DNA of 64,000 nt from a virus. The stretch covers positions 28,596 through 92,595 of IMG/VR virus record IMGVR_UViG_3300035210_000132, one strand, 5' to 3'. Positions 48,160 through 64,000 of this stretch are shown piece after piece. The stretch's first letter is position 1. Every line of letters starts with the position of its first letter. A program made the position numbers and the translations under genes. Below the pieces are notes generated by a model. The model saw nothing but the letters and a program-made list of their open reading frames with translations. It was not told where the DNA came from and did not search any database.

Positions 48160-48162
48160 CTC

Positions 48163-49732: not shown

Positions 49733-49929
49733 GGTGCAAAACCTCGCAAATCACGGTGATAAGCAAGATGCAGAAAGCGCGTGGACTGTACCAGGCCGGG
49801 CGTACCTGCAATATTTTGCAAACAGCCGAGATAAGAGCACTGGATACAAACCGGGGAAGATCACTGCACTGGGCGTACTGGATAGTCCGGGAAAGCAGTG
49901 CAGTCGAGGGTCTGGTTGTGAGCGCGACA
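49733..49929. promoter_or_regulatory. AT-richer ~200-nt intergenic region upstream of the 199-aa gene. Contains TGCAA-TATTT-TGCAA repeat elements; candidate promoter or operator.
   Basis: 'ctgcaatattttgcaaac' at 49805-49822. The ORFs predicted here are low-complexity and unconvincing. Confidence 0.3.
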
Positions 49930-50106
49930 CTACTGGGCTCCTCGCTTTACTACTTCCCAGGCCCCATGAATCGAGCATCCTACCATCCTAGCGATCTCAG
50001 GATAGCTCTTTCCATTGTTTCTTAGATCCAAGATTTTCTGCCGACGGTCACTTCGAATCTTTGGGCTACGCTTGGTCTTAAAACGAGCTGCCCACTTATA
50101 GCTCAT
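49930..50106 (-). CDS. 58-aa helix-turn-helix DNA-binding protein missed by the ORF track (MSYKWAARFKTKRSPKIRSDRRQKILDLRNNGKSYPEIARMVGCSIHGAWEVVKRGAQ).
   Basis: Strong SD GAGGGGG 8 nt upstream of the ATG at 50104-50106. 'RRQKILDLRNNGKSYPEIARMVGCSIHGAW' is a classic HTH of the sigma-region-4 or resolvase type. Confidence 0.55.
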   Translation of the reverse strand: MSYKWAARFKTKRSPKIRSDRRQKILDLRNNGKSYPEIARMVGCSIHGAWEVVKRGAQ

Positions 50107-50151
50107 TTCAGGTACCCCCTCTAACGCTGGACAGTAGCTTCCTTCATTCTT

Positions 50152-50607
50152 TTAGCCCATAACCAGTCCGGCCAGACGAGCGAAGGCTTCTTTCTTTAGC
50201 TGTGGAAGCGACCCCTGAGCCTTGAGCTCTAGCTGTACCATACGCACGTGCTTGCAGTCTCGGGTCTTCTGGCCCTTCTTCCACGACTTCGCGTAAGTCC
50301 AGTCACCGCAGTTGCAGGAGTAGCGGTCTGCTTCTGGATGGTACTTGACTGTGTAGTGCTTACCAGAGACCTGACTGGGTACCTGGAACGACGGCACGCC
50401 CTTGGCCTGCTTGTGCCTGGCGATGTTCTCGGAGAAGCGCTTGAGCTTGCTGTCCGAACGTGGATCTTCCTTTACGGCCTGCACGAAATCCTTGGAGCGC
50501 AGGTTCTTCTGGAAGGTCTTCCACTGGGGCGAGCCGAAGTGGCTGTCGAGAAATTCCTGGGACGCCCCAGCAATCTTGACCAGGGCCTCGAACAGCTGCT
50601 TCTTCAT
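50152..50607 (-). CDS. SWIM zinc-finger protein (151 aa).
   Basis: 'CNCGDW...(17)...CKHV' fits the CxCxnCxH SWIM signature. Confidence 0.55.
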   Translation of the reverse strand: MKKQLFEALVKIAGASQEFLDSHFGSPQWKTFQKNLRSKDFVQAVKEDPRSDSKLKRFSENIARHKQAKGVPSFQVPSQVSGKHYTVKYHPEADRYSCNCGDWTYAKSWKKGQKTRDCKHVRMVQLELKAQGSLPQLKKEAFARLAGLVMG

Positions 50608-51221
50608 GCCTTGAATAATGCCGTGAAACGGTCTACGAGAGAAGCTCCTGTCGAGGTGTCCTGGATGATGTGCTTCAGGGGGTACAAGAAAGCCCCACGA
50701 AGTCTTCGAGCTTCCTCCATGCCCTTGACCTCCGCCTGAGTGCGGTAGCGGATGTCGAGCGGGTGGTACTTGCAGTAGACGTCGGCGTCACTGTTCAGCT
50801 TGCGGAAGAGCAGTTCGGTGAGCTCAGACAGTTCCTGGATACTGCCGTAGAAAGGCATCTGGCCAGTCAGGTGCATAGACGGGATGCGTCTCTTGCACCC
50901 AGTGCACAGGGCCACATCGGCGATGATGTTCATGGATCCGATGGGAGCACCGCAACCATGAGGCGTGGGCTCTTTAGCTTGTGCCATGCGCTTCAGGGTC
51001 GGCAGCACCGAAGGCGGAGTGGTGTTGCTTTCTTCAAACAGCCGGTGGTCCAGGCACAGGTACATCTGACCATCGCCACCACCATGGAAGAACTTCCCGG
51101 ACTCCATGAGGAGCACCAGGGCCTTGAAGTCCTTCTTGGTGGTCCGATCAGGGCCAAAGTGGATCTCGATCTTGAACTTGGCCCGGATCTCTCCGAACTC
51201 CGTACTGAGATCGTCACTCAC
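50604..51221 (-). CDS. Hypothetical protein (205 aa) with a possible Cys-rich metal site ('HGCGAP...CTGCKR').
   Basis: ORF with ATGA-type overlap. Confidence 0.5.
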   Translation of the reverse strand: MSDDLSTEFGEIRAKFKIEIHFGPDRTTKKDFKALVLLMESGKFFHGGGDGQMYLCLDHRLFEESNTTPPSVLPTLKRMAQAKEPTPHGCGAPIGSMNIIADVALCTGCKRRIPSMHLTGQMPFYGSIQELSELTELLFRKLNSDADVYCKYHPLDIRYRTQAEVKGMEEARRLRGAFLYPLKHIIQDTSTGASLVDRFTALFKA

Positions 51222-51706
51222 TTGACTTCCCCTCCTGGGCGGCTGATGCGGAAGTCGCTCTTACCCCCGACGGTGTAGGCGCCTTTGCCTAGGGGTGTGG
51301 GCAGTCGATCACCCGTTACCCCAGTGAACTCCATCTCCTCGAGCTCCCCTGCCCGTACCTTGGACAAGGTCCCCGGGTCCTCTCCCCGAACCACTCGATT
51401 GAGGTAGTCCAGGGAGGTGCTCATGTCCAAAGACTGGATCGAGACGTTCCAACCAAACACCAGCTTCTTCTCTTTCAAGAAATATAGACGACAGATGTGA
51501 GCCTGCCAGCTATAGGGCCGCCCTTGCTCTATCTCGGTGGCCAGGAGCAACCGCCTCACCAGACCGACCCACTCGTCGTCCTTACCAGGCAGCACTCTAC
51601 AGAGCACTCGAACCTGACTCTCTCCGTAAGTGCTGTTCACCGCTTGAGCCAGCCCGGTTGCTTCCAACGCTCTGGCTAGACGATCTGCGTAGGCCTTCGA
51701 GCTCAT
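51218..51706 (-). CDS. Hypothetical protein (162 aa).
   Basis: ORF. Confidence 0.5.
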   Translation of the reverse strand: MSSKAYADRLARALEATGLAQAVNSTYGESQVRVLCRVLPGKDDEWVGLVRRLLLATEIEQGRPYSWQAHICRLYFLKEKKLVFGWNVSIQSLDMSTSLDYLNRVVRGEDPGTLSKVRAGELEEMEFTGVTGDRLPTPLGKGAYTVGGKSDFRISRPGGEVK

Positions 51707-51707
51707 A

Positions 51708-52028
51708 TTACTCCTCTTTCACGAGACTAAGAGCACGTTTTACCGTATCAAGATTGGGGACCTTGCCCTCATGGACCAGCCTCTCGAGTTCGGAGATCTC
51801 CAGGATCTTCTTCTCAATCAACTGGGTTGAGAGCTCGAGGGCTCCGATGCATGCCCAGGTACCCGACCAGCGCTCCAAGCCAGCCGCCCGTGAAGGGCTC
51901 TCCTCAGAGCTCTCGAGTAGCCGCTTGCGGATGAGATCATACGCTGACATGAACGCCAGAAGATCCTTGCGAAGCTCTCGCCTCTCTTCCACCAGAGTAC
52001 TCAAGCTGTATCCTACTAGCTCCGCCAT
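51708..52028 (-). CDS. Small helical protein (106 aa).
   Basis: ORF. Confidence 0.45.
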   Translation of the reverse strand: MAELVGYSLSTLVEERRELRKDLLAFMSAYDLIRKRLLESSEESPSRAAGLERWSGTWACIGALELSTQLIEKKILEISELERLVHEGKVPNLDTVKRALSLVKEE

Positions 52029-52327
52029 TTCTCCAGAACCTCAGCAGGAGCGTGAAAACCCAAGACGAAGTCGCCGTAGGAGATCTTGGCCCTGAACCCT
52101 TGACTGCTACTCAAGGAGATTTCGTACTGCACTCCTCCTGGCCTTGCTTGGTTGCTAACTTCCTGGGCAGGTTGACTGTAGTCGACCACCTTGATGGAGG
52201 GCGACCAGCCCGGATGCTGATCCGCGTAGCAGTAGTGACAGAGGAGCTTCTTCGTGTCGAAGTCGAACTCGGTCTGCTCCTTGAGCAGGTCGCGACGACC
52301 ACATTGAGGATTTTCACACCACGCCAT
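52016..52327 (-). CDS. Small zinc-binding protein (103 aa).
   Basis: 'CENPQCG...(21)...CHYC'. Preferred over the overlapping 52111..52362 ORF. Confidence 0.45.
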   Translation of the reverse strand: MAWCENPQCGRRDLLKEQTEFDFDTKKLLCHYCYADQHPGWSPSIKVVDYSQPAQEVSNQARPGGVQYEISLSSSQGFRAKISYGDFVLGFHAPAEVLEKWRS

Positions 52328-52358
52328 GATGTCTCCCTTTCCAGCCAGCCCGACTGGT

Positions 52359-52799
52359 TCAATCGACGGTCACAAGCAAAGCGATTACTCGGTCTTGGTT
52401 AAAAATTAGATCGATGTCCAAGACCGTCTTGGTATCCCACGTCATAGGGTCCTCTGTAGAGACCCTAACTCGAACCCCTCTAGTCAAGTTCGCCATGTTC
52501 CTAGATACCAAGAGTACGAGACGGTCCATGGTGTCTAGGTAGCCCTTGAGGGATGCATTACCCGGGAGCATCACCACCACTTCGCGCTTGGCGTCTACTT
52601 CCAAGCGCGTTTCCCTAACCTCGTTGGCGTCTTCGAGAAGCTTCTCGATGTCTTCGGCGAAATCAGCCAAGGCGAGTTTTGCCAAGTCCCCTGCTTTGTC
52701 AGAAGCCCCTACATCGAGCTGGCCCCAGCTCTCCAGCAACCGAAGGACGTGAACATCGATGATCCCAGAGGCGATCATCTTCTCTGTCAATGGCTTCAT
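52359..52799 (-). CDS. Hypothetical protein (146 aa).
   Basis: ORF. Confidence 0.5.
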   Translation of the reverse strand: MKPLTEKMIASGIIDVHVLRLLESWGQLDVGASDKAGDLAKLALADFAEDIEKLLEDANEVRETRLEVDAKREVVVMLPGNASLKGYLDTMDRLVLLVSRNMANLTRGVRVRVSTEDPMTWDTKTVLDIDLIFNQDRVIALLVTVD

Positions 52800-53320
52800 G
52801 GAATCACCGCCTTAAGGGAAAACTGCAGCTCACCCTCATCGTCAGAGCCGCACAACACGAAAACGTCTTCTTCGATGGCGGTGTCAACCTGCACCGGTAC
52901 CCCAAAGAACGCTAGGTTGGTGATGGGGATCTGGACGCGAAGCCACTGTTGGAACAAGAACCGATTGCCGAGGAGCAGGTGACTCAGGCTCAAGCCTTCG
53001 TTGTGGATGATCTGACTCATCTCCCACAAATGAGCAAAAGCTGGGCGAGACCGTGACTCCTCCTCGATCACGTACTCTGTCATCGGCTTGGCCTTGATCT
53101 GGTCGTAGACCGAGACGGTGGCCTGGTCCGGAGCTTTATCCTTGGGCACCATCTTCTCAAAGAGGATGGGCTTGCCTATCTCCAGGGTCAGCTTCTGAGT
53201 ATAGGGGTTCTCCTTGAGAACGGCCCTGATGGCCGTGACAATGTCATCTACCCCCTTACCCAGAAAGGGAATACTGTCCTTGACCCGAACCCACCCGGGT
53301 TTATCAGAATTGCGGGACAC
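52796..53320 (-). CDS. Hypothetical protein (174 aa).
   Basis: ORF with ATGA-type overlap. Confidence 0.5.
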   Translation of the reverse strand: MSRNSDKPGWVRVKDSIPFLGKGVDDIVTAIRAVLKENPYTQKLTLEIGKPILFEKMVPKDKAPDQATVSVYDQIKAKPMTEYVIEEESRSRPAFAHLWEMSQIIHNEGLSLSHLLLGNRFLFQQWLRVQIPITNLAFFGVPVQVDTAIEEDVFVLCGSDDEGELQFSLKAVIP

Positions 53321-53486
53321 TGCCAGCCTCGACGTTCTTCTTCAGCTCCGTGAAGTAGTCCACGATGAGCTGGGTGACGTTGGTATTATGCTCGTGCGCG
53401 TACCGCTTGGCCCAATAACTCAGGTCCATAGGAAGCCGTATGTTCAGACGGATCTTCTCCGCCTTCCTCTTGTTTGGCCGAGCCAT
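53304..53486 (-). CDS. Ribbon-helix-helix (Arc/CopG-like) DNA-binding protein (60 aa).
   Basis: 'IRLNIRLPMDLSYWAKRYAHEHNTNVTQLIVDYF' shows the canonical RHH strand plus helix pattern. Confidence 0.55.
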   Translation of the reverse strand: MARPNKRKAEKIRLNIRLPMDLSYWAKRYAHEHNTNVTQLIVDYFTELKKNVEAGSVPQF

Positions 53487-53495
53487 CAGGTGGTC

Positions 53496-53843
53496 CTAAG
53501 AAAACGCCCCCAGCTGCACATCTTCTTCGATGACGGCCATGACATCCTCAGCACGAATCATGAAGACGGGGTTATCTCCCTCTGCATCGAAGCCTTGTAC
53601 TGCATCCTTGAGAAAGCCGCGGTAGCAAACACGCATCCCTGGTTCGAGGTCGTAGCCGATCTTGCCCCGAATCTCGTCCCGGTCGCCTACCCGTAGAAGA
53701 TGCCCAGTACCTTCCATGACCCTCTCGATGCCCGTGATGGCCTCGGTCAAGTAGATCCCTCCCTTGGTCTTCTTGACGCGAGGGTCGCCTTTGACGATCA
53801 GCCACAGGTGCAGCGGTCTAGTGTCTTTCCAACGCAGGCCCAT
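53496..53843 (-). CDS. groES: GroES-like co-chaperonin (Hsp10 family; functional analogue of T4 gp31), 115 aa.
   Basis: Aligns with E. coli GroES at 'RPLH..LIVK', 'KTKGGIYLT', 'LRVGDR' and the C-terminal 'PVFMIRAEDVMAVIEE'. Confidence 0.7.
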   Translation of the reverse strand: MGLRWKDTRPLHLWLIVKGDPRVKKTKGGIYLTEAITGIERVMEGTGHLLRVGDRDEIRGKIGYDLEPGMRVCYRGFLKDAVQGFDAEGDNPVFMIRAEDVMAVIEEDVQLGAFS

Positions 53844-54125
53844 CTAGACCTCCGAAACCGCGTCCACCGACAGCTTCAGGGCAGCCATGATGTCGCGCTT
53901 GGCCCAGGCTTGAGCAGGGCGTAGGCTAACCGCGTTCTCGTTCAGGTAGTAGATCTCTCCTCCTGGGATGACCAGGACGATCTTGATCATCTCTTTGCCG
54001 AAACCGTCCCGCATCTTGACGATGGCCGTCTTGATCTCCTTGATGCCCAACACCCTAGCGCCCGATAGATCTTCCTCTGGCAGAGGAGTTGCTCCCGTCT
54101 TCTGGTACTGATCCTGTGTCGCCAT
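53844..54125 (-). CDS. Hypothetical protein (93 aa). The start is set at the ATG at 54123-54125, which has a perfect SD AAGGAG 7 nt upstream.
   Basis: SD read directly. Overlaps the 3' end of the next gene by ~70 nt in a different frame. Confidence 0.5.
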   Translation of the reverse strand: MATQDQYQKTGATPLPEEDLSGARVLGIKEIKTAIVKMRDGFGKEMIKIVLVIPGGEIYYLNENAVSLRPAQAWAKRDIMAALKLSVDAVSEV

Positions 54126-54411
54126 AACCAATCTCCTTCTTGGGGGTCAATGCTGGGGCGAAGGCACTCAGGTCCATCGGAGCCAGCTTTCCTGTGGAGC
54201 AGCCGCACTTCCGTGCGACTACCTTCTTGATGACGTCTACTTGGTAACTGACCGGCTGCGTGCATACGGGACAGATGTGCTTCTGATCCCCTAAGGGGGT
54301 CAGAGTAAATTGGGGGCCAGGCGCCACCAGCTGGGTGAGTAGCTCCAGCACCAAATCAAGCTTGTGCTCAAGGCGCATCTGGGCTTCGGACAGGGCATCA
54401 TCTGCTGCCAT
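54055..54411 (-). CDS. Small zinc-finger protein (118 aa). This is the C-terminal part of the 219-aa track ORF, starting at 'MAADD'.
   Basis: The ATG at 54409-54411 lies 2 nt after the upstream TAG, preceded by the SD GAGGT. 'CPVC...(14)...CGC'. Confidence 0.45.
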   Translation of the reverse strand: MAADDALSEAQMRLEHKLDLVLELLTQLVAPGPQFTLTPLGDQKHICPVCTQPVSYQVDVIKKVVARKCGCSTGKLAPMDLSAFAPALTPKKEIGYGDTGSVPEDGSNSSARGRSIGR

Positions 54412-54413
54412 AA

Positions 54414-54848
54414 CTACCTCGCCTCGGTTACTTTGAACACGGTCGCCCCCAAGGTAGAGGACGCAAAGTGGATGACCTTGGTACCAAGGGTCAAAGATAT
54501 GATCAGAGACCGCTGAGGGTCGGATGACGCTTTCAGGTCGACCTCGGTGATGGTGGATCCAAGCAGGAGCTTGCGTAGATCCTTCGGACCGCAACGCTTC
54601 TCGTTGGGGAGCCCAGCGCCGAACGATGCCTGGAAGAGCTGCAAAGCACTGATGTGCTGCGACCCCTTCACCTTGATGTTGCCGGCGGCGTAGATCTTGA
54701 CCTTGCCCCCGCAAGCTTCATGATTCGGACAACGCATGCTCTTCTTCAGCAGGTGAGCATTCGGGTCAGAGTCAGGAACCACAAAGGCTGCTGAGCAGCC
54801 CTTGCAGATGTAGATGCGAACAGGCGAGGCCACCGATCCGCGGTTCAT
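54414..54848 (-). CDS. Zinc-finger protein (144 aa).
   Basis: 'CKGC...(22)...CPNHEACGG'. Confidence 0.5.
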   Translation of the reverse strand: MNRGSVASPVRIYICKGCSAAFVVPDSDPNAHLLKKSMRCPNHEACGGKVKIYAAGNIKVKGSQHISALQLFQASFGAGLPNEKRCGPKDLRKLLLGSTITEVDLKASSDPQRSLIISLTLGTKVIHFASSTLGATVFKVTEAR

Positions 54849-55186
54849 ATCTGATCTACCCCATCATCAGGCGACTCCTGAGCCTCGTCTGAGTCACCCC
54901 CTTCGTCGGTCAACTGACTTTGTTGCTCGGCTACCCCGTTCCCCTCGGCGTACATGATCTTGATAACTTCCTGGGCAGCTTCAGGAGAGATGGGGATCCT
55001 GAGTGCCCCTTTGTTCAAAACGAGAAGGAACTGCACCACCCCGTCATTGTCGAAGTCACTCTCTTGCGCTAAGCCCGTAACCTTGAGGTCTTTCATATGG
55101 TCACCTTTGGTGCAGGGGGAGGAACGGGACGGGGTACCTGCACCCCAGGATGGGCAATCTTCTCGAGCAGCCGCAAAAGAGTACAA
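54845..55186 (-). CDS. Small acidic protein (113 aa; possibly starts at an internal Met).
   Basis: Acidic C-terminus 'DEGGDSDEAQESPDDG'. Confidence 0.4.
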   Translation of the reverse strand: MYSFAAAREDCPSWGAGTPSRSSPCTKGDHMKDLKVTGLAQESDFDNDGVVQFLLVLNKGALRIPISPEAAQEVIKIMYAEGNGVAEQQSQLTDEGGDSDEAQESPDDGVDQI

Positions 55187-55244
55187 GGCTCTTTAGGGCC
55201 TACTACATAGGCCTTGCAGGAATCACGGCACAAGCGCAACCCAT

Positions 55245-55661
55245 CTAGAAAGCAGTACCTCTGGGACGGCGCCGGGCTTTCTCCACCGGGTCGAGCTGAG
55301 TCAACTTGCCCTCCTCGGTCATCGACAGCCGCTTGGCCTGCTCCTTCTGGCCTTGCTTCAGGCGAGCCTTGACGCTCTTCCTGGTCATATCTTCTAGTGG
55401 GGTCACCGACAGCACCCCCCGGTTGATTTCCTTCATCAGCTGGTTGCGCCACTTAGAGGACTCCTCGGCCTTGGTGTTCCGATCGAAGGGGAAGTAGGCC
55501 TCCTTGAGCTGGTCGAAGACCTCCTTGATGACCTTCTCCTCGGCATCTTTCTGCGCCAGTAGGCTTTGTACCAGCGCTCGAGATTTCTGGAACTCGATCT
55601 TCTGCCGCATCTGCCATACGAGAATGAAGACTATCTCCAAAGGGGTGCCGGGCTCCGGCAA
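55245..55661 (-). CDS. Basic helical protein (138 aa).
   Basis: ORF. Confidence 0.45.
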   Translation of the reverse strand: MPEPGTPLEIVFILVWQMRQKIEFQKSRALVQSLLAQKDAEEKVIKEVFDQLKEAYFPFDRNTKAEESSKWRNQLMKEINRGVLSVTPLEDMTRKSVKARLKQGQKEQAKRLSMTEEGKLTQLDPVEKARRRPRGTAF

Positions 55662-55714
55662 CTTCGCCGCCTTCTCGTATAGTATGTTTGCCCGCGCCCA
55701 TCCCAGTGGAGTCT

Positions 55715-56608
55715 CTAAAAACCCTTGATGTTGTCCACCACCAGAAGGCGTTGAACACGTCGGCTGAACCAGGCGTAGTTGACGCTCAAGTCAGCAAGCA
55801 GGGTAAAGGGCAACTTCGAGATGAGCTTGAGCTTGGCCTCAAAAGCTTCTTTGTCCGGCTCCCCACTCTTGTCCAGATGGGAGGGGAAAGGCCGACCATT
55901 CAGGGCGTAGATGCCTGCCGTCAGATTCAGGAGCGAGTAGCGATCCATGATGTACTGCTCACTGCCACGCTCACTCGACATCCAGCGCTTGATGAAGAGA
56001 TCTTCGCTGCCTGACACCGAGCGATACACCGGCTCGAGCTTCCCTGGGATGATAGGTACTTTCTGGCGGATCTCCCCCTGAAGGATGAGGTCCTCCACCT
56101 GCATCTCGTCACAGCGTTTCTCGATGGCCTCACGACGGACCCGGTTAGCCGTCAGGCTACGTACTTTCCTTCCGAACTCATCGGTCTCGTACTGGGTGTC
56201 AATCTCGTCGATCTCTTCTTCTACTTTCTTGAGATCGTCCTCCTTCGCAGGCTTTTCCGCGTTTGCCTCGAGGACCTCCCGGACTTGCTGGGCTGTGTCA
56301 GGACGGAGCACTGAAGATCCAGGGGGCCTGGGGGGGTTCACGAATTCCCCCGTCTCGGGCTTGGGTTCCTGGGTACGAGGCACCTTGGGTTGGTTCGCGG
56401 CGTAAGCCGACCCGATTCCGGGGATGAAGCCTCCGGATGACTGCAGACGAGCTTGTTCCTCGGCCGTGAGGACTTTGCGGGCTGACTCCGATACCACCCT
56501 ACCGGGAATAGGGTCCTGGTCGAACCGAGGAAGGGGAGGGAGATTGGAATGAGGAGCTCTGGTTTTCGCAGCCGCCATTTTGGCGGCGTAGTCGTCATCA
56601 TCAGACAT
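55715..56608 (-). CDS. Hypothetical protein (297 aa) with an acidic N-terminus.
   Basis: ORF. Confidence 0.5.
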   Translation of the reverse strand: MSDDDDYAAKMAAAKTRAPHSNLPPLPRFDQDPIPGRVVSESARKVLTAEEQARLQSSGGFIPGIGSAYAANQPKVPRTQEPKPETGEFVNPPRPPGSSVLRPDTAQQVREVLEANAEKPAKEDDLKKVEEEIDEIDTQYETDEFGRKVRSLTANRVRREAIEKRCDEMQVEDLILQGEIRQKVPIIPGKLEPVYRSVSGSEDLFIKRWMSSERGSEQYIMDRYSLLNLTAGIYALNGRPFPSHLDKSGEPDKEAFEAKLKLISKLPFTLLADLSVNYAWFSRRVQRLLVVDNIKGF

Positions 56609-56610
56609 GG

Positions 56611-56937
56611 TTACTCGTCTCCGCCGAAGTTACGGCTGGGGTCGCGAAAAGCAGCTCCGGTGTACTGCACCGCAGGAAGATCATCAGCGGGAGCAGGAAG
56701 GCCAGCAGGAGGCGGTGCCTCTAGGAAGTCAGGCTTGGCCGCCCCCATGGATCCCCCAGACCAGCGATTACCACACTTACGACAGTCGAAGAAGGTCTCG
56801 TACTGATTCTGCCTTCCGTCGTATTCAGCGCTCTTGCACTTGGGACAACGAACGACGGCCTGGAGACCGCTACCTTCTTTCTTGAACGGGTGATCGAACA
56901 TCCTAACCTCCGGAGTACGTTGTCTGTACAGCATCAC
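56611..56937 (-). CDS. Zinc-ribbon protein (108 aa).
   Basis: 'CPKCKSAEY...(17)...CRKCGNRW' is a CxxC-x17-CxxC ribbon. Confidence 0.5.
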   Translation of the reverse strand: MMLYRQRTPEVRMFDHPFKKEGSGLQAVVRCPKCKSAEYDGRQNQYETFFDCRKCGNRWSGGSMGAAKPDFLEAPPPAGLPAPADDLPAVQYTGAAFRDPSRNFGGDE

Positions 56938-56945
56938 AAAGTCAA

Positions 56946-57236
56946 CTACTTTGTGGCTGGCCTAGAAATTCCCCTATGAGCCTCTACGGTTATCGCCACT
57001 CCTCTCCTGATCTCCTCGGATAAAGTAGCCCGTACCAGTGGCTCTACGATCCCCTCGGAGAAGTCACGGTGGCAGCCCACCCAGACCGAATAATGGGAGG
57101 GCATGTAATCGGTCGCAGGACGAATCGACACTCCAGCAAAGAGGACCCCGGAGGACTCGGGCAGAGCCAGAAGCCGCTTCTCCATAGATCGTGCCAAATC
57201 CGCTTCTTCCTCGGTCACCAGGACAACTACTTTCAT
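56946..57236 (-). CDS. Hypothetical protein (96 aa), first gene of the minus-strand early block.
   Basis: ORF. A 70-nt divergent intergenic region follows. Confidence 0.45.
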   Translation of the reverse strand: MKVVVLVTEEEADLARSMEKRLLALPESSGVLFAGVSIRPATDYMPSHYSVWVGCHRDFSEGIVEPLVRATLSEEIRRGVAITVEAHRGISRPATK

Positions 57237-57307
57237 AGCCTAGATCCCTACCACCAACCTCCAAGAAAACCAATCTTCTCACAGCAACCTAGTCGGACCA
57301 GGCTGGA

Positions 57308-57547
57308 TTGATGGCAATGTTGGCTGAGGATCTAGTTAAGGCGGAGCTTAGACGTCTGCGCTTCTTGGATCGAGAGCACCGGCGTATCAGTGAAGAAGCA
57401 GAGTCCCTCTCCAGAGAAGTAAGAGACAAGGCACGGGCCATCTCGAAACAGCTTCGCGAGCTGCTGGGGCAAGCTAGGCAGAGTCCTGAGAAAGAACGCG
57501 CCTGGACACTCTGCCAGCAGTTGGTAGAGCAGCTTGCTCATCTGTAG
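57308..57547 (+). CDS. Small coiled-coil protein (79 aa), first plus-strand gene of the late cluster.
   Basis: ORF; helical and charged. Confidence 0.4.
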   Translation: MMAMLAEDLVKAELRRLRFLDREHRRISEEAESLSREVRDKARAISKQLRELLGQARQSPEKERAWTLCQQLVEQLAHL

Positions 57548-57624
57548 GCTACGAAGTCCTTCTCTCTTAGTAGTGACGCACGTAACATCGCGTCTAGGGC
57601 TACATCTATAAGGAGGCAAGGTTA

Positions 57625-58314
57625 ATGGAAACGTTTCGAGCGTTCTGGGCAAGTTGGGGTCCGTGGATCACTGTGAGTCTAATTCCGACCTTGATCACAG
57701 GATTGTCACTGTCACCAGCTACAGCTGGGACCGTGAGTACCGTTCAGAAGGTCTGGGATCTCATCAAGCAGGTCCTGGCTTTCCTCTCCGTGGCGACCTT
57801 CAAGGATCAGCCGGGAACCTTCCAACTCCCAGTGGTCGGAGGACTCAAGATGACGAAACAGCTGCGCATGGCCAAGAAGCCCGTTACTCCCAACAGTGGC
57901 AACCTCGGAGGACCCGGACTGGCCTTGGTGATCTGCTTTGCCCTGATCCAGAACGCTTGCTGCGCCTGGACGGGGACCTGTAAGACGGTTCCAGGGCAGA
58001 TAGCTACAGATGTGATCGATTGTGGCAAGGACTCTATCAAGGCTGAAGTCGCACATCTTCTACCTACGGTTGTTGCTATCTTGACCGGAGGTGCACCGGA
58101 CTGGTCGAGTCAGCTCGATGCCCTGAAGATCATGGGCTTCGAGGCCTTGTCCTGTGCCATCGCAGCTGCTGCCCAAGATCTCCAGAACCTGATGGCTGCT
58201 CCTGGGCCTTCGGGAGTGCTGAGCTCGACCAGCACCAAGGCCGCTTCTGACAAGCACAAAGCCGATACCTGGCTGAAGACCTACAAGGTCACGTTCAGCA
58301 ACGTGGAGAAGTAG
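57625..58314 (+). CDS. Membrane protein with 3-4 predicted TM segments (229 aa). Holin-like candidate.
   Basis: SD AAGGAGG 9 nt upstream. TM-like segments 'WASWGPWITVSLIPTLITGLSL', 'GLALVICFALIQNACCAW' and 'LLPTVVAILTGGA'. Immediately precedes the peptidase gene. Confidence 0.5.
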   Translation: METFRAFWASWGPWITVSLIPTLITGLSLSPATAGTVSTVQKVWDLIKQVLAFLSVATFKDQPGTFQLPVVGGLKMTKQLRMAKKPVTPNSGNLGGPGLALVICFALIQNACCAWTGTCKTVPGQIATDVIDCGKDSIKAEVAHLLPTVVAILTGGAPDWSSQLDALKIMGFEALSCAIAAAAQDLQNLMAAPGPSGVLSSTSTKAASDKHKADTWLKTYKVTFSNVEK

Positions 58315-58315
58315 C

Positions 58316-59110
58316 ATGCCTCTGCATCAGGAGATCAACGGCAAGCTCCGCAACATGTATGGCTGGCGTAGAGATCTCCCCGATCACCGGGACGAGAACT
58401 ACAAGGTCATCTTCGACCGCAAGGTTATGCCCAGGATGCTTGATCTATCGGCTAACTGCCCCAGGACCGAGGATCAAGGTGGCTTGGGCAGCTGTACCGC
58501 CAACGCCGCGACTTCAGCCATGGAGTTCCTCTACAAGAAGGTAGGCAAGTCCCAGCCCGAGCTCTCTCGCCGATTCCTGTACTTCGCTACCCGAGTCTGG
58601 ATCGCCCACGGTCTCCCTGGGGATGATAGTGGGGCCCAGATCCGTGATGTCATGAAGGCTCTGGCCAAGTACGGAGTCTGCCTGGAGACCACCTGGCCCT
58701 ACGATATCGATCAGTTTTCAGTCTCTCCTTCGCAACAAGCGCGGGAAGATGCCCTGACGCACCAGATCACCAAGTACTCCCGCCTGCCCAACGTCTCGAC
58801 CATCCGGGCTTGCATGGCCCAGGGCTATCCGGCAGTAGGAGGATTCTCGGTCCCTGCCAGCATGATGGATGAGGAGACCAGCAAGACGGGGATCGTCAAG
58901 CTACCAGGAAAGAACGAAGAGTTCATCGGAGGACATTGTGTGTTCTTCGTCGGCTACGACGACTACAAGCAACTCCTCAAGTTCCAGAATTCTTGGGGAG
59001 AGAGCTGGGGAGACGACGGCTTCGGCTACCTGCCCTATGACTATGTCACCAACTGGCTTGCCAGTGACTTCTGGTCTATCCAGGACGAGGAATTCGCAGC
59101 CGCTGCCTAG
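58316..59110 (+). CDS. Papain-like cysteine peptidase, MEROPS C1 family type (264 aa).
   Basis: Catalytic-Cys block 'QGGLGSCTANAATSAMEF', His block 'GGHCVFFVGYDD' and the Asn/Trp block 'NSWGESWGDDGFGYLPY' match C1A signatures. Confidence 0.65.
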   Translation: MPLHQEINGKLRNMYGWRRDLPDHRDENYKVIFDRKVMPRMLDLSANCPRTEDQGGLGSCTANAATSAMEFLYKKVGKSQPELSRRFLYFATRVWIAHGLPGDDSGAQIRDVMKALAKYGVCLETTWPYDIDQFSVSPSQQAREDALTHQITKYSRLPNVSTIRACMAQGYPAVGGFSVPASMMDEETSKTGIVKLPGKNEEFIGGHCVFFVGYDDYKQLLKFQNSWGESWGDDGFGYLPYDYVTNWLASDFWSIQDEEFAAAA

Positions 59111-59121
59111 GAGACTTATAA

Positions 59122-59520
59122 ATGAACGTCCTCTACGACAAAGGTCGCCAGGGTTTCCTGGATGGCTTGATCTCATGGACCAGCAATGTCATCAAGGCGG
59201 TCCTGGTCGACACAGCATCGTACACGGTCAACCTCGCCACGGATCAGTACCTGAGTATCATCCCAGGCGGGGCGAAGCTTGCGACCTCGAGCGCCTTCAC
59301 CAACAAGACCAGTGTTGCTGGGGCAGCTGATGCTGACGACCTGCTCTTCCCGGCAGTTATGGGAGGGAGCACAGCCAGAGCCGTGGTGATCTACCAGGAC
59401 ACAGGGGATCCGGCTACCAGCCGGCTCATTGCCTTCGAGAACGTGGCCAACACACTGCCCCTGGCTACTTCGGGAAGTGACGTCCTGATCGAGTGGGCTT
59501 CTTACATCTTCAAGCTCTAG
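59122..59520 (+). CDS. P2 gpH N-terminal-like 'tail-collar fibre' domain protein (132 aa). Candidate fibre or baseplate adaptor.
   Basis: 'LLFPAVMGGSTARAVVIYQDTGDPATSRLIAFEN' compared with gpH 'IPPEVGGFWMRELGLYDDAGTLIAVAN'. SD AGGAG. Confidence 0.4.
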   Translation: MNVLYDKGRQGFLDGLISWTSNVIKAVLVDTASYTVNLATDQYLSIIPGGAKLATSSAFTNKTSVAGAADADDLLFPAVMGGSTARAVVIYQDTGDPATSRLIAFENVANTLPLATSGSDVLIEWASYIFKL

Positions 59521-59531
59521 AGGAGTAGCAG

Positions 59532-60578
59532 ATGCCAGGCTCGATCCCATCTCAGATCAAGACGTGGGAACACAACGTCAACCTCCTGGTGTCAAGCACT
59601 GGGGTGGACGGCAGCACCGACAAGTCCATCCTCCTCACTATCAAAAATGCCCTGATCGGCTTCGCAAACGTTCCCTGCGTGGTCAAGGGATCCTCCAACG
59701 GCTCTAGTGCCGGAGCTATGGATGGAGTAGATCGCTGGGGCAGCATAGCCAGTATCAACCAGGGAGGTGTGGGCTCTAACCACTCCTGGATCGTTCTTGA
59801 ATTCCCTGGAGTCAACAACGGATCTGGAGGGAAGCTCCAAGTCTGCTTCGAGTACACCACCCTTGGCGCTGGTAACATCGACAACTGGATCCTGAAGATC
59901 TCTCCTGCGGCTGGCTTCACAGGAGGTTCTGTAAACACAGCACCTTCGGCTACCGACGTCATTTCCCTCCAGACGGTCTCCATCGCCTTCGCCTACAACT
60001 ACCCCGGGGTACCGAAGCCCCATCGCCTGCACTTCTTTCATTCTACGGACGGCGCCATCACTCACCTGGTCATCTCTGCCAACAACACGTCCCTTTGCCA
60101 CTTCATGTTTGCGGCAGTGACGCCTACAGTCGATGCGGTCACCACAGGACAGCCCGCTGGCTGGAACTACCCCTGTATCGTCTCCGCTGAAGCGGCTAGC
60201 GCAGGAGGAACAAACAACCTAACGCCTGCCAACTATACCACCTACGGGCTCAAGCACGCCAGCATCCACAACGGCCTCGGACTGGCCTGTGGCTTCGAGT
60301 GGGAGGGAGGATCTTCCTTCATTGCTGCAGGGGGCATGGCAGAAGTGCCGAACGATATTACGGGACAGTACCCCATGCTGCCTTATGGCATCTGGTCCAA
60401 TACAGGAGGCGGGAATGGAAGATACGGCTACGTACAAGATATGTGGTTTATTTCTTCCACGGCGTTTGCCTCTATCGGTTCGACCATCGGCGCAGACGAC
60501 AACCATCGTCGCTGGGCCGTGTTTGGATGTCTCGTACTACCATGGCTAAACGATAGCACGCTTCCTCTAGGGAGTTGA
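59532..60578 (+). CDS. Structural/adhesin-like protein (348 aa), tandem paralog A.
   Basis: Shares N-terminal ('MPGSIP..KT.E...IGFANVPC.VKGSSNG..AGAMDGVDRW') and C-terminal ('DDNHR.WAVFGCLVLPW.ND.T.P') blocks with the next gene. SD GAGGAG. Confidence 0.55.
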   Translation: MPGSIPSQIKTWEHNVNLLVSSTGVDGSTDKSILLTIKNALIGFANVPCVVKGSSNGSSAGAMDGVDRWGSIASINQGGVGSNHSWIVLEFPGVNNGSGGKLQVCFEYTTLGAGNIDNWILKISPAAGFTGGSVNTAPSATDVISLQTVSIAFAYNYPGVPKPHRLHFFHSTDGAITHLVISANNTSLCHFMFAAVTPTVDAVTTGQPAGWNYPCIVSAEAASAGGTNNLTPANYTTYGLKHASIHNGLGLACGFEWEGGSSFIAAGGMAEVPNDITGQYPMLPYGIWSNTGGGNGRYGYVQDMWFISSTAFASIGSTIGADDNHRRWAVFGCLVLPWLNDSTLPLGS

Positions 60579-60580
60579 AC

Positions 60581-61600
60581 ATGCCTGGCTCAATCCCGAC
60601 TCCCCTCAAGACCTACGAGATTCACGCCAACAACTCCTTCGTCAATAACAACAGTTCACCCAACGATCCTAGGAATGATCTGTTTACTGTCAAGAGCGCT
60701 CTCATAGGGTTCGCCAATGTACCTTGTATTGTCAAGGGCAGCAGCAATGGTGCTGGTGCTGGTGCTATGGATGGTGTCGATCGTTGGGCAGGCACAGGAA
60801 ACCTGAACTGGGCTCTTGCTGGATCGAACCACTCGTGGATTGTTCTTGAGTTTCCAAGGATCAACGATGGAGCAGGACACAAACTACAGCTGTGCTTTGA
60901 TCTGAACTTTAGCTCTCCTTCAGCGAATATAACTATTGTAGTTTCTCCAAAAGGTTTTTCGGGTGGAAGCGCCACGGCCAGACCGACTGCTTCAGACGAG
61001 GTCAGCCTTGGCACCATCGTCCTTCCTAGCGGATCAGGAACAGTGCGTTGGCAATCCATTCACGCTACAGATGGAACAACTACACACATCATATTTTCCT
61101 CTAGTAACGTCGTCGTAGCTTGGTGGATGTTTTCCACAGTTATCCCTACCATCGATGCTGTAACCACGGGACAGCCGACAGGCTGGGACTACCCCTTCGT
61201 AGTCTGGGTAGAGGCAGCTTCCAATCTTTCGAATCCAGTGATGACCCCTGCCAACATTATCTCGTACCAACCTAGACACGCTGGAAGCCACGCAGGAATA
61301 GACCTGGGGCTGGCTCTGACCATAGAGGGTGGTGCCACTACCATCAACAGTGGGGGATCTGGGGCATCCCAGCACGCCATCACTTCTCAATACCCGATGT
61401 TGCCACATGGTGTCTGGTGCAACGTAGTGGGGGCAAGAGGGCGGCTAGGGTACATCCCAGACCTCTGGTTCGTATCTACGACCGCCTTTTCCCAGATTGG
61501 ATCTACCTTAGGAGAAGATGACAACCACCGGAAATGGGCCGTTTTCGGGTGCTTGGTACTGCCCTGGACCAACGATACTACCGTACCAGCGGGAGCGTAG
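60581..61600 (+). CDS. Structural/adhesin-like protein (339 aa from the ATG at 60581), tandem paralog B.
   Basis: Start moved from the track's TTG (60575) to the ATG that aligns with paralog A's 'MPGSIP' and has the SD GGGAG 6 nt upstream. Confidence 0.55.
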   Translation: MPGSIPTPLKTYEIHANNSFVNNNSSPNDPRNDLFTVKSALIGFANVPCIVKGSSNGAGAGAMDGVDRWAGTGNLNWALAGSNHSWIVLEFPRINDGAGHKLQLCFDLNFSSPSANITIVVSPKGFSGGSATARPTASDEVSLGTIVLPSGSGTVRWQSIHATDGTTTHIIFSSSNVVVAWWMFSTVIPTIDAVTTGQPTGWDYPFVVWVEAASNLSNPVMTPANIISYQPRHAGSHAGIDLGLALTIEGGATTINSGGSGASQHAITSQYPMLPHGVWCNVVGARGRLGYIPDLWFVSTTAFSQIGSTLGEDDNHRKWAVFGCLVLPWTNDTTVPAGA

Positions 61601-61603
61601 TAG

Positions 61604-63811
61604 ATGGCCAACTTCACAAATCTTGAGAAGCAAACCTACGTTGGTTTCTACTCAGGCATCCCTGACGTCTATAAATCCCTGGCGGTCGTAGCTGTACAAT
61701 CCTCTAAGAAAGACCGCTTTGGTAGGGCCCCCAGTTGCGACCTTCTAGGCCCTACCAACGGAACCACCATCAACAAGACTACTCCATTGGTCTTTCGCAT
61801 CACCGACCCTGATGCTGAGGCCTCTACTGCCAGTGTTGTCCTGACCATCTCGAGAACCCCGAATGCGGAGACTGTAGATATGATCCGAGCCGGCACCAGG
61901 GTCTACTCGGAAGGCGGTACCAAGGCGACGGTCACCGTTACCTTCACCAGATCCGAAAACATCTCTTATCGGTCGGTGCGCTACGCAGCGGGGACACGCT
62001 TCTACAACGCCTTTGCTAGCCGAGCCTACCTGATCAACAAAGAGGTCTATCTGTCCTCGACCTCAGCTGCCGGCTACCCTTCGAGTGTGACCTGTACTGC
62101 CGAGGCATATGGCTACGACCCCTACATCTGGGGAGAGATTCCAGCAGGAGCCAAGATCTTCACCGACCCTGATGGTTCTTCGGATGTGGTAGGCACACAG
62201 ATTGTCTACTACCCTCAAACAGAAGATCAGGGCTGGGTTCAATGGCAACCCAACCATGCCTACTCCCTTGGAGATCAGATCGGGCACAATGGAAACGTCT
62301 ATCTTTGCTACCAGGCGGGTGTTTCTGGAACTCAAGGTCCGTCGGGGCTACTGAACATCGCAGACGGTACCGTGTGGTGGTCCTATCGCTTCGAGGACAC
62401 CAAGAGCCGTATCACCATGGCCATCGCGCATGCCCAGAGCACACCCCCAGCAGGAAAGATCCCAGCTGGCTACCGACTGCAGGCCGGTAGTGGGCAGTAC
62501 TTCCGAGTTATTTCTGATACGGTAGTTGGGGCAGGCGTCACGAGCTACAATGTCGCTTGCCAGGCTGAGGAAGCCGGTATAGACGGGAACGTTCCCGCCA
62601 ACACCATCAGACTCCAGCCCGCCCAAACCCTACCAGCAGGATCGAACTTCGACCCCAACTGGACAGTAGACAACGCTGCCCCTGCTAGCGGGGGTACGGG
62701 AGCCACAGACTCGGTCAGCTTCTACACCAGAGAAGTCGGTGTGCTTCTTCCAGGATCCGATGTCTGTTACGTTTGGGCCGATGCCGAGGTACCAGGAAGT
62801 CTGGGAAATGCTCCGGCGGGATCGTTGACCCAGCTGCGCTTCGAAGGGGTCGCGTATAGCATCGCGGGCCTGACCTGCACCAACACCCTACCCGCCTCAG
62901 GGGGAGAAGACTCGTCAGCTCTAGAGAGAGCTCTTCCTTGTATCAAGTTCAACATCTCTGGTCGAGTAGAGAGCGTTCACGACGGCACGACCTTCATGCC
63001 AGGTTATGCTGACTTGTCTGCCATCGAGTCAGTTCCAGGGGGCTATCTCTACAGTGTAAAAAGAACGGGAGGGTGGACGGACACCTCTATCACACTCTAC
63101 CCCGCTGCCTACGATGTTTCTGGTAATGAGATGGCTCCCATCTCGGTGGGGTCTTGGGCAGTTTCCATCCCTTCTCTGTCTGTCACTCTGGTGTCTCCGA
63201 CCAACGGCGCCGAGCTCCTCACCAACGCAGACCCTCTCGTAGTCGACCTGGTAGGCGACATCGTTACGGGCGAAGTCGTGGTCAACAGCGAGCTCGTGTA
63301 CGCTGCCGGAGCGTTTCAGACAGGCTTCTTGGCAAGCTCGACCAAAGTCGCTGTCACCGACGGCTACCGGTTGTCGATCGTGAGAGACGCTGGCTGGGTG
63401 CTGAACCCGACCATGTCGGTGCTCTTGATCGACACTCGAGGCAACCACCAGACGGCGTACTACACCTGGCTCTGGGGAGCGTCGATCACAGGAACTCCTC
63501 CTGTCATCACCATCATCTCTCCTCCTGCTAATGACCATGGGCGCAGCATCTACGCCAATACCTTCCTGGTCTTCGAGGTCACGGATCCCGATGACAACCT
63601 ACGGGGCTTCTACCCCATCATCTACTATCCAGATGGCAGCGACGCCCTGGTTCATGATGGCACGAGTTTCAGGCCCAACTTCGCGACGTACTCGACTCGG
63701 GATGTGATCACCCACGGCTACCGCTTCCGCATACGGCCAAACGGCGGCTGGGCAAAGTCCCCATCACTCTTCCCTGTGGGCTACGATGAGGTCGGCCTGG
63801 AGATTCCATGA
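61604..63811 (+). CDS. Large beta-rich protein (735 aa) with a CBM5/12-like (chitin-binding type 3) motif. Candidate receptor-binding or glycan-binding tail protein.
   Basis: 'WVQWQPNHAYSLGDQIGHNGNVYLCYQAGVSG' fits the CBM5/12 'W....Y..GD.V..NG..Y.C.Q' pattern. SD GGGAG. Confidence 0.5.
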   Translation: MANFTNLEKQTYVGFYSGIPDVYKSLAVVAVQSSKKDRFGRAPSCDLLGPTNGTTINKTTPLVFRITDPDAEASTASVVLTISRTPNAETVDMIRAGTRVYSEGGTKATVTVTFTRSENISYRSVRYAAGTRFYNAFASRAYLINKEVYLSSTSAAGYPSSVTCTAEAYGYDPYIWGEIPAGAKIFTDPDGSSDVVGTQIVYYPQTEDQGWVQWQPNHAYSLGDQIGHNGNVYLCYQAGVSGTQGPSGLLNIADGTVWWSYRFEDTKSRITMAIAHAQSTPPAGKIPAGYRLQAGSGQYFRVISDTVVGAGVTSYNVACQAEEAGIDGNVPANTIRLQPAQTLPAGSNFDPNWTVDNAAPASGGTGATDSVSFYTREVGVLLPGSDVCYVWADAEVPGSLGNAPAGSLTQLRFEGVAYSIAGLTCTNTLPASGGEDSSALERALPCIKFNISGRVESVHDGTTFMPGYADLSAIESVPGGYLYSVKRTGGWTDTSITLYPAAYDVSGNEMAPISVGSWAVSIPSLSVTLVSPTNGAELLTNADPLVVDLVGDIVTGEVVVNSELVYAAGAFQTGFLASSTKVAVTDGYRLSIVRDAGWVLNPTMSVLLIDTRGNHQTAYYTWLWGASITGTPPVITIISPPANDHGRSIYANTFLVFEVTDPDDNLRGFYPIIYYPDGSDALVHDGTSFRPNFATYSTRDVITHGYRFRIRPNGGWAKSPSLFPVGYDEVGLEIP

Positions 63812-64000
63812 GCCCGAGCATCTACGAGTGGTACCTGGTCACCGATGTCCTGCACTGCCTGATGGAGGCTATTCCCTCGGCAGAGCTCTTCCCGACGCCT
63901 ACGATCTACCGTGATCACAAAGACATCCCCTTTGCGCCCATCCCATCAGCAGAGGACTTTCCTCTTCCTACGGTCCGGCTCTACGCAACTTCAGTAGCCA
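63808..64000 (+). CDS. 3'-partial gene (at least 64 codons, MSPSIYEWYLVTDVLHCLMEAIPSAELFPTPTIYRDHKDIPFAPIP...) that continues beyond the window.
   Basis: The ATG at 63808 overlaps the TGA of the upstream gene (ATGA coupling). The frame is open to the end of the window. Confidence 0.45.
   Translation, partial: MSPSIYEWYLVTDVLHCLMEAIPSAELFPTPTIYRDHKDIPFAPIPSAEDFPLPTVRLYATSVA

Follow-up and report, generated by a model that had tools for sequence, protein, structure and literature searches.

A xylellain-type C1A cysteine peptidase coupled to an envelope protein: a candidate accessory lysis enzyme of a divergent large phage

Phages of Gram-negative bacteria leave the cell through the successive action of a holin, an endolysin and a spanin, and we know of no established role for the papain C1A family in this process. 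In a 64,000-nt stretch of the viral record IMGVR_UViG_3300035210_000132 (positions 28,596-92,595 of that record), here called the window, a gene for a membrane-associated protein is followed immediately by a gene for a papain-like cysteine peptidase (positions 57625-59110, the feature under study). What could such an enzyme do in a phage? A preliminary description had taken the two genes for an unusual lysis cassette or an effector pair. On balance we lean towards the view that 57308-59110 makes up the proximal section of a conserved cluster of late lysis genes, in which the C1A protease would work as an accessory lysis enzyme together with an envelope partner. Within the searchable literature we found no C1A protease characterised in phage lysis.

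The locus consists of three open reading frames (ORFs) of 79, 229 and 264 amino acids (aa) on the plus strand. One base separates the TAG of the 229-aa ORF from the ATG of the peptidase ORF (GAGAAGTAGCATG), and the envelope partner is, by this gene layout, translationally coupled to the peptidase. The preliminary description had the coordinates of both ORFs and the 1-nt gap right, and the small coiled-coil gene that it placed ahead of them exists and is conserved in relatives. The genes and the catalytic residues are as follows.

57308..57547, plus strand: 79-aa cytoplasmic coiled-coil protein, which opens the conserved gene trio
57625..58314, plus strand: 229-aa envelope protein, apparently a fusion of an N-module and a C-module, with a strong Shine-Dalgarno (SD) sequence (TAAGGAGG-N8-ATG)
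58316..59110, plus strand: xylellain-type C1A cysteine peptidase, 264 aa, no signal peptide (Pfam, PDB sequence search, model)
58475-58477, plus strand: catalytic residue Gln54
58493-58495, plus strand: catalytic residue Cys60
58934-58936, plus strand: catalytic residue His207
58988-58990, plus strand: catalytic residue Asn225

By sequence, the 264-aa product belongs to the C1A peptidases proper, in their xylellain-type branch, and its active-site residues are intact. Pfam Peptidase_C1 (PF00112) matched it over profile positions 14-201 of 220 at E=1.8e-13, scoring 51.5 bits where the gathering score is 20.7, and phrog_16701, a 'peptidase' family, matched at 1.5e-16. The nearest PDB structure by sequence was xylellain of Xylella fastidiosa (3OIS; E=1.7e-43, query 10-256 against 3OIS 28-287), with 38% identity over the whole length, N-terminal segment included, followed by mite allergens, chymopapain and cathepsins. 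We built an AlphaFold (AF2) model on 25 homologues (predicted local distance difference test score, pLDDT, 90.8; predicted template modelling score, pTM, 0.89), in which the peptidase is a two-lobed papain fold. Its best Foldseek match was again 3OIS, with a TM-score of 0.81 over 264 columns, that is, full length, and the best 50 PDB matches were all C1A enzymes (E 2.7e-25 to about 1e-12). Q54, C60 (GSCTANA), H207 (GGHCV) and N225 (QNSWG) are invariant across the 25 homologues. The three C1A motif blocks quoted in the preliminary description all occur in the translation, and the C1 identity lies far beyond chance. That description had also allowed for a better fit to CHAP or NlpC/P60, which can be ruled out: Pfam gave no match to CHAP, NlpC/P60 or C39 (C39_2) at E<=0.1, neither CHAP nor NlpC/P60 appeared among the 60 PDB sequence matches listed or the best 50 fold matches, and the C1 assignment stands.

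The peptidase carries no export signals. Its maximum Kyte-Doolittle (KD) value is 0.74, with no hydrophobic N-terminus and no signal peptide. Pfam found no I29 pro-domain in the protein, where ~45 residues precede the Cys block, and since the catalytic Cys is the sole invariant one across the 25 homologues, no disulfide pairs are conserved. The signal peptide, I29 pro-domain and three disulfides of classical secreted cathepsins and papains are thus all missing, and we therefore expect the enzyme to fold in the cytoplasm. It has the make-up of the short xylellain-type C1A enzymes, namely full-length similarity, a short conserved N-terminal segment, a length of 264 aa and no export signal. W17, D23, R25 and D26 are invariant and align with the N-terminal segment of xylellain, which, in the 2013 FEBS Letters structure paper, reportedly blocks the active site of an enzyme under nucleotide regulation. 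By analogy, the window peptidase probably has a short self-blocking N-terminal segment too; this segment is all that we found of the pro-peptide considered in the preliminary description. Pfam detected no cell-wall-binding domain in the peptidase.

The 229-aa protein upstream matched no family in Pfam, PHROG or NCBIfam, the holin families of Pfam and PHROGs included, and a PDB fold search with its AlphaFold model gave no match at E<=0.001. It had been described as a protein with 3-4 transmembrane (TM) segments. The ORF is real, but we found only one strong hydrophobic segment (residues 94-117, KD 1.74) and a weaker one rich in G, S, T and P (residues 11-35, KD 1.36); the remaining TM candidates (residues 137-184) fall inside a confidently predicted soluble four-helix bundle. 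The model begins with a helical hairpin and ends in the four-helix bundle (residues 130-219, pLDDT about 90); between them lie a basic linker, predicted as disordered, and a short helix at residues 99-113. The alignments suggest that two modules are fused in the protein, a holin-like one with a single TM segment (the N-module, residues 1-75) and a lipoprotein-derived periplasmic domain with a decayed lipobox (the C-module). Its parts are as follows.

57646..57723, plus strand: N-module TM segment, residues 8-33 (FWASWGPWITVSLIPTLITGLSLSPA), G/S/T/P-rich, KD 1.36
57787..57831, plus strand: invariant loop motif S55..K60-D61-x-x-G64-T65-F66-x-x-P69, then a K/R-rich stretch (alignments)
57838..57852, plus strand: internal GGAGGA-N6-ATG (Met76), a weakly indicated internal start ahead of the signal-like segment
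57907..57963, plus strand: short hydrophobic stretch ending at invariant Cys113 (LALVICFALIQNACC), KD 1.74, which may be a decayed internal signal of lipoprotein type or else another TM anchor
58012..58281, plus strand: four-helix bundle (AF2) that makes up the C-module; Cys133 and Cys177 are invariant, and a periplasmic location is predicted

Conservation in the family peaks in the TM segment of the N-module, where W14, I15, L19, P21, T22, I24, G26, L27, S28, S30 and P31 are invariant in 13 sequences. Stand-alone N-modules carry the matching loop motif 'THKDxxGTFKLP'. From the positive-inside rule we predict a cytoplasmic position for this motif, with the N-terminus outside, the basic loop inside and the C-terminal domain outside. 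A TM segment, a K/R-rich region and the adjoining lysis enzymes of relatives would fit a holin for the N-module, but no holin family of Pfam or PHROGs matched, and the module is joined to a large extra domain.

In the following, labels of the form Lnnn denote the viral contigs and loci compared, L005 being the window phage's own contig. The second hydrophobic stretch of the 229-aa protein, about 12-15 residues long, is homologous to the lipoprotein signal peptide of relatives: the stretch ending at Cys113 aligns with the N-terminal lipoprotein signals of L011-L014 and the internal lipobox LAGC of L015. The window's LIQNAC-C, read by eye, fails a PROSITE-style lipobox at position -2. C113, C133 and C177 are the sole invariant columns across 22 members. 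The signal of the C-module is internal, whereas an o-spanin has an N-terminal lipoprotein signal with a lipobox Cys, and the charge pattern of the protein suggests the reverse of the type II (N-in) orientation of i-spanins; the predicted N-out, C-out topology with a cytoplasmic loop is likewise unlike that of u-spanins. An o-spanin embedded out of frame in the gene was considered and rejected, the sole alternative-frame ORF (57654..57983) having no signal or lipobox. A separate lipoprotein made from the internal start is only faintly suggested: the internal SD and ATG recur in L093 and are absent from 5 other orthologues, and GGAGG-N-ATG/GTG is frequent by chance, with 50 sites in the window and 7 of them at gene starts.

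The size of the partner family depended on the search method, as word-indexed homologue searches returned 11-14 clusters and an exhaustive profile search 656. These 656 representative clusters comprise fused, N-only and C-only architectures. Lone N-modules are encoded by a separate gene of 77-115 aa in L013, L181 and several representatives, each with one TM segment and a charged tail. In L013 the genes for the 77-aa one-TM protein, which has the motif, and for a 141-aa protein that opens with a textbook lipoprotein signal (…LVIGLAGC) share 4 nt; L011, L012 and L014 have the lipoprotein form only; and the fused partner of L015 has a perfect internal lipobox, LAGC. A PROSITE-style lipobox was recognised in 39 of 52 stand-alone C-modules, a single one of which has Asp at +2, and in 4 of 12 fused members. 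Among the peptidase loci scanned, the partner profile matched phage loci only and always immediately 5' of the peptidase, with no match in 80 bacterial or archaeal loci with peptidase homologues. In L177 a C1 peptidase gene begins 15 nt past a distant stand-alone lipoprotein module. L180 has no peptidase at the locus and carries such a module one gene after a protein of Pfam family Phage_holin_6_1, and this placement suggests that the lipoprotein family is a lysis-cassette component in its own right.

The genes around the pair point the same way. Partner orthologues lie directly 5' of the peptidase in L008, L010-L015 and L091-L094. The pair thus recurs in eleven related phage lineages, with a short coiled-coil gene ahead of it in most, and the spacing between partner and peptidase is -4 to +5 nt in every clade member examined. 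A peptidoglycan (PG) hydrolase (Amidase_2, GH25, 3D or M15) lies <=1.2 kb from the pair in 9 of the 11 lineages. We annotated seven big-phage lineages (L005, L008, L010 and L091-L094), in which minus-strand small genes on the left give way to a plus-strand coiled-coil gene (mostly 63-86 aa), an envelope protein of 207-251 aa and the C1 peptidase; a PG hydrolase, a ~220-aa PG_binding_1 protein and LigD, methyltransferase and ThyX genes follow on the right. The window conforms on the left, where the genes upstream of the trio, past a 71-bp gap, are all on the minus strand. Its 79-aa protein has no hydrophobic segment by Kyte-Doolittle and no family match in Pfam, PHROG or NCBIfam, and orthologues of 63-86 aa hold the same position in L008, L010, L015, L091 and L092.

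The hydrolase next to the pair is Amidase_2 in L010, L093 and L094, GH25 in L092, PG_binding_1 with 3D in L091 and L005, M15_3 in L013 and L014 and Amidase_2-like in L015; L008 has PG_binding_1 proteins only, and its contig ends there. Such varying hydrolase types in a fixed slot resemble endolysin modules, for which non-orthologous replacement is typical. The conserved ~220-aa protein of the big-phage lineages (L181 included) has a C-terminal PG_binding_1 domain and N-terminal M15/LAS-like His/Asp motifs. Its M15-like label comes from SxHxxGxxxD and HxH-like motifs in the alignment and was not established by profile (VanY 5.2e-5, below cut-off; LdcB E about 0.6).

The three smaller contigs, with peptidases 43-48% identical, show compact cassettes. 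L013 encodes a TM protein, the N-module, the lipoprotein, the peptidase and an M15_3 endolysin in this order, and L014 a TM protein, the lipoprotein, the peptidase, a small Cys-rich secreted protein and an M15_3 protein. In L015 the order is coiled-coil protein, fused partner, peptidase, Pro-rich lipoprotein, N-TM coiled-coil protein and Amidase_2-like protein; the Pro-rich lipoprotein and the N-TM coiled-coil protein make an o-/i-spanin-like pair between peptidase and amidase. An eighth big-phage clade member, L181, keeps the same left-hand block, the N-module and the right-hand M15-like gene, while the lipoprotein and the peptidase give way to an unrelated lipoprotein of 133 aa, whose lipobox reads LSAC, and a protein of 262 aa that has the motifs YGCCTFAG and GGLGGHAYNIFGH (L181:5311-6497). 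The 262-aa protein has its Cys and His motifs in matching positions, and as a cysteine peptidase it received an hhalign probability of 1.5% and no Pfam match. The two genes may represent a swapped pair.

In the window phage itself the peptidase and the hydrolases are separated by the following block.

59122..64000, plus strand: tail-fibre/baseplate block, co-oriented with the peptidase (Pfam/PHROG matches), interpreted as an insertion between peptidase and PG hydrolases

This block follows the peptidase only in the window phage and L008 and is missing in the other nine lineages, L010, L091-L094 and L013-L015 among them, and we read it as an insertion. Because of it, the window phage's own hydrolases lie 6.3 and 7.4 kb 3' of the peptidase and outside the window (L005:17130-18206, PG_binding_1 with 3D, and L005:18221-18877, M15-like with PG_binding_1; ~1.4-3.2 kb beyond window position 64000). 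By these gene contents, the peptidase is not the sole endolysin of the window phage. The idea of a lysis cassette in the preliminary description is thus partly borne out by the clade synteny, with the amendment that the peptidase does not occupy the endolysin slot alone. That description had also raised the matter of a holin, endolysin or spanin elsewhere, and of these the PG hydrolases were found downstream, with no holin family recognised; no other lysis genes were recognisable among the window ORFs that were scanned. The endolysin candidates near the peptidase carry no TM segment or signal and therefore need a membrane-permeabilising partner.

How might the protease contribute to lysis? Its timing, compartment and substrate, and any contact with the partner, we infer from this arrangement. 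Made in the cytoplasm without a signal peptide, the protease would accumulate late in infection and gain the envelope only upon membrane permeabilisation. It would then act beside the neighbouring PG hydrolases, possibly positioned by the envelope partner, and cut a proteinaceous or peptide component of the envelope, with wall-tethered lipoproteins, outer-membrane proteins or stem peptides as candidates. In the partner, the N-module would be a one-TM, holin-like inner-membrane element and the C-module a periplasmic, Cys-containing helical domain that descends from an outer-membrane-type lipoprotein of other phages' lysis cassettes. Since the characterised relatives are protein endopeptidases and conventional murein hydrolases stand alongside, our guess is that a proteinaceous target is likelier than murein. 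A bolder and unlikely version is lysis based on the protease, in which enzyme and envelope partner would make up a new lysis module: freed at holin triggering, the enzyme would dock on the lipoprotein-type domain and sever the tethers between outer membrane and murein, as a proteolytic alternative or adjunct to spanins, or it would cleave the invariant KDxPGTFxLP loop of the N-module and so time hole formation, in which case the swap in L181 would mark an exchangeable two-gene cassette.

The peptidase family reaches well beyond these phages. A first search returned 358 homologues at E<=1e-5, and relatives occur in many bacterial and archaeal metagenome-assembled genomes (MAGs), phages and giant-virus MAGs. 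According to a 2023 survey, Caudoviricetes and Mimiviridae/Megaviricetes obtained their short C1A peptidases of the xylellain type by horizontal transfer (PMC10380794), and therefore a xylellain-type gene in a phage is not new by itself. Our giant-virus homologues (34-44% identity; IMG/VR L017, L018, L020, L035, L043, L044, L047, L073 and L086) agree with the independent acquisition by Megaviricetes published there. Distant members, some of them annotated 'peptidase' or 'endolysin' in GenBank, include a 754-aa 'endolysin' of Alicyclobacillus phage MMB025 (Peptidase_C1, Ig-like, Rv2525c/GH25-like and PG_binding_1 domains), an L090 protein with Peptidase_C1, PG_binding_1 and a weak SLT match, and a peptidase of Thermoanaerobacterium phage THSA-485A 16 nt downstream of a GH25 endolysin. 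The MMB025 and THSA-485A peptidases are only 26-28% identical to the window protein. They share with it a C1 peptidase domain, theirs in an unambiguous lysis context, and differ in their Gram-positive hosts and in having no lipoprotein/TM partner of the window's family.

Among 143 same-strand neighbours from 54 phage loci, Peptidase_M15_3 was the commonest Pfam family, and PHROG 'endolysin' and tail-fibre families recurred in an overall heterogeneous set. When we searched with a panel of PG hydrolases, a hydrolase near the peptidase was found mostly in the window's clade; the lysis context is therefore a property of this clade and not of all viral xylellain-type enzymes. That all viral members are lysis genes is ruled out, as the neighbours of distant IMG/VR and genome loci are mixed and at most of these loci the panel found no hydrolase. 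At two loci (2 of the 143 neighbours, Pfam) a chagasin-type inhibitor stands beside the peptidase; one, L054:10839-11159 on a 50-kb viral contig, encodes a 106-aa chagasin-family protein (Inhibitor_I42, NPTTG motif) directly 3' of the C1 peptidase. Adjacent inhibitors of C1 enzymes argue that the peptidases are active proteases.

Several observations count against an accessory role in lysis. The same hydrolase panel found no hydrolase in L011 and L012, nor near the majority of the more remote homologues, viral or bacterial. Of the GenBank phage homologues, the two closest stand by themselves, without evident lysis genes around them; one is from LR756511.1, an uncultured phage of 595 kb, the other from FLC9, a jumbo phage of Burkholderia. 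The chagasin neighbours would equally fit a cytoplasmic protease that needs restraint. In the window, the peptidase gene is in one run with baseplate and tail-fibre genes, with the hydrolases more than 6 kb off. Classical C1A enzymes, xylellain too, cut L-peptide bonds in proteins and are not known to cut D-amino-acid stem peptides, so that a direct role on murein is not implied. The holin-like label of the N-module comes from its architecture, with no holin family matched, and the accessory lysis role is a prediction.

Part of this evidence would suit a cytoplasmic protease for host takeover, anti-defence or scavenging, whose place among lysis genes is incidental, an explanation that we consider unlikely. 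Such an enzyme would be expected to look as the peptidase does, without signal peptide or disulfides, and xylellain-type enzymes are widespread as intracellular proteins of bacteria and archaea; the inhibitors at two phage loci, and the homologues of FLC9, LR756511.1, the Lak phages and giant viruses without lysis context, speak for it as well. The missing signal does not discriminate, because canonical endolysins are also cytoplasmic proteins without a signal. Takeover leaves unexplained, however, the strict coupling to an extracytoplasmic, phage-specific partner, the recurrent PG hydrolase in the adjacent slot across lineages, and the fusions to PG_binding_1 and glycosidase domains.

A second alternative makes the peptidase itself a PG endopeptidase, a C1-type endolysin domain that cuts stem peptides or cross-links in the manner of CHAP or NlpC/P60. 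Endolysin domains of clan CA (CHAP, NlpC/P60, which is LysA N4, and the C39-like LysA N5) likewise combine a papain-like fold with a Cys/His site and are used in lysis; the LysA N4 domain of mycobacteriophage D29, for instance, is a C40 enzyme. Distant relatives of the window peptidase have multi-domain endolysin-like architectures, and in several compact cassettes the peptidase adjoins endolysins and small TM proteins. Unlike those domains, the window protein is free-standing, has no wall-binding domain and has only C1A enzymes among its best Foldseek matches. Xylellain, whose structure is solved, is a protein endopeptidase, as are all the nearest structural neighbours, and with one or two conventional PG hydrolases beside it the peptidase is not needed for murein. 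LysA N5 was placed in a 'large papain family' by Payne & Hatfull 2012 (PMC3314691), but homology to it was rejected: hhalign against gp11 of mycobacteriophage Bxz2 gave a 17% probability from a local match of 52 columns confined to the surroundings of the His motif, and the support is at clan level only. We therefore think a murein-cutting peptidase distinctly improbable.

Very doubtful is a virion- or tail-associated protease that digests a surface protein layer at infection or matures tail fibres, an alternative also named in the preliminary description: in the window and L008 the peptidase gene does share a closely packed operon with tail-fibre genes (phrog_644, Baseplate_J and Laminin_G_3), no terminator-like site was found between it and these genes (a promoter and terminator scan was uninformative), and tail-fibre PHROGs are common beside distant homologues, yet the inserted-looking tail genes follow it in just 2 of 11 lineages while partner and PG hydrolases stay when they are missing, the order from tail fibres to lysis genes is the normal end of a late operon, and the peptidase has no structural-protein domain and matches no virion-protein family.

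Several known systems offer partial comparisons. Xylellain is of similar size to the window peptidase and shares the missing signal and the catalytic residues with the latter, which differs in being phage-encoded, coupled to a phage-only partner and set in a cluster of PG hydrolases. The LysB esterase of mycobacteriophages, and spanins and disruptin for the Gram-negative outer membrane, are alike in concept only, as extra functions for an outer layer or its tethers, with no homology. V-cath of baculoviruses, another C1A protease encoded by a virus, serves the late breakdown of host barriers in virus release; it derives from an insect cathepsin of a different C1A branch, is secreted together with a pro-domain, works on tissue and belongs to a different host biology. 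On the side of the partner, holin T of T4 (class III) is likewise of ~220 aa and joins a membrane anchor to a sizeable periplasmic domain with conserved Cys, and the stand-alone N-modules resemble lambda-type holins in having one TM segment and a charged tail. To neither did we detect sequence or fold similarity, and 'holin-like' is meant as a prediction only.

Xylellain-type C1A genes in phages and clan CA cysteine peptidase domains in endolysins were already known. Apparently undescribed are the lysis-cluster setting of this clade, the pairing with a partner family of 656 clusters and the fused architecture. Should the envelope be its target, the protease would bring a further enzymatic activity into the lysis toolkit and possibly a new type of enzybiotic, and it would provide a first physiological context for the widespread and functionally obscure xylellain-type proteases. 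The lipoprotein/TM family of the partner, left 'hypothetical' by annotation pipelines, becomes a new candidate among lysis components, and many uncultured large phages have the pair in their lysis clusters.

The features of the window suggest a large, highly divergent tailed phage whose genome measures at least 199 kb. Public metagenome contigs, the longest of 199 kb, encode an identical peptidase, and a DNA-level search with window positions 50000-64000 found no match in GenBank phage records. The window has giant ORFs without a family match, two Baseplate_J-like proteins, a DNA ligase and no tRNA. Five minus-strand ORFs of 1184-1360 aa (1754-5464, 6170-10252, 24907-28899, 36863-40642 and 42267-45821) have no Pfam or PHROG match and presumably encode virion proteins. 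The second Baseplate_J-like gene encodes a giant of 1659 aa (14231-19210, minus strand). An ATP-dependent DNA ligase-like gene (46466-47974, plus strand; phrog_114) is the sole long plus-strand gene in a long minus-strand region, and just past the window a 479-aa LigD_N (phosphoesterase) protein is encoded (L005:18867-20306, minus strand), which gives one phage two separate end-joining or ligation functions. The ~20 small minus-strand genes at 48000-57236 keep their order across all related big phages and include a weak Cpn10 (GroES-like) match; a Sigma70_r3 match was found among the small ORFs of the window.

The genes 3' of the peptidase, at spacings of -4 to +11 nt, encode the 132-aa phrog_644 protein, the 348/341-aa paralogues and a 735-aa Baseplate_J/CBM_5_12 protein. 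The first (59122-59520; phrog_644, E=8.5e-36) has ~50% identical homologues in 443 GenBank phage records, all 'hypothetical', including 396 Mycobacterium and 37 Pseudomonas phages, a conservation unusually high across hosts as unlike as actinobacteria and the probably Gram-negative host of the window phage. The tandem paralogues (59532-60578 and 60575-61600) are 49% identical, overlap stop to start, have no family match and no orthologue in L008, and are probably diversified tail-fibre or receptor-binding components. In the Baseplate_J protein (61604-63811) the match to CBM_5_12, a chitin/carbohydrate-binding family, scores 25.8 bits against a cut-off of 26.2. On the 217-kb phage contig L092, right after the M15-like/PG_binding_1 gene, a 902-aa protein (L092:12581-15289) matches Pfam MVP_shoulder and, weakly, Vault_3, which are domains of the eukaryotic major vault protein.

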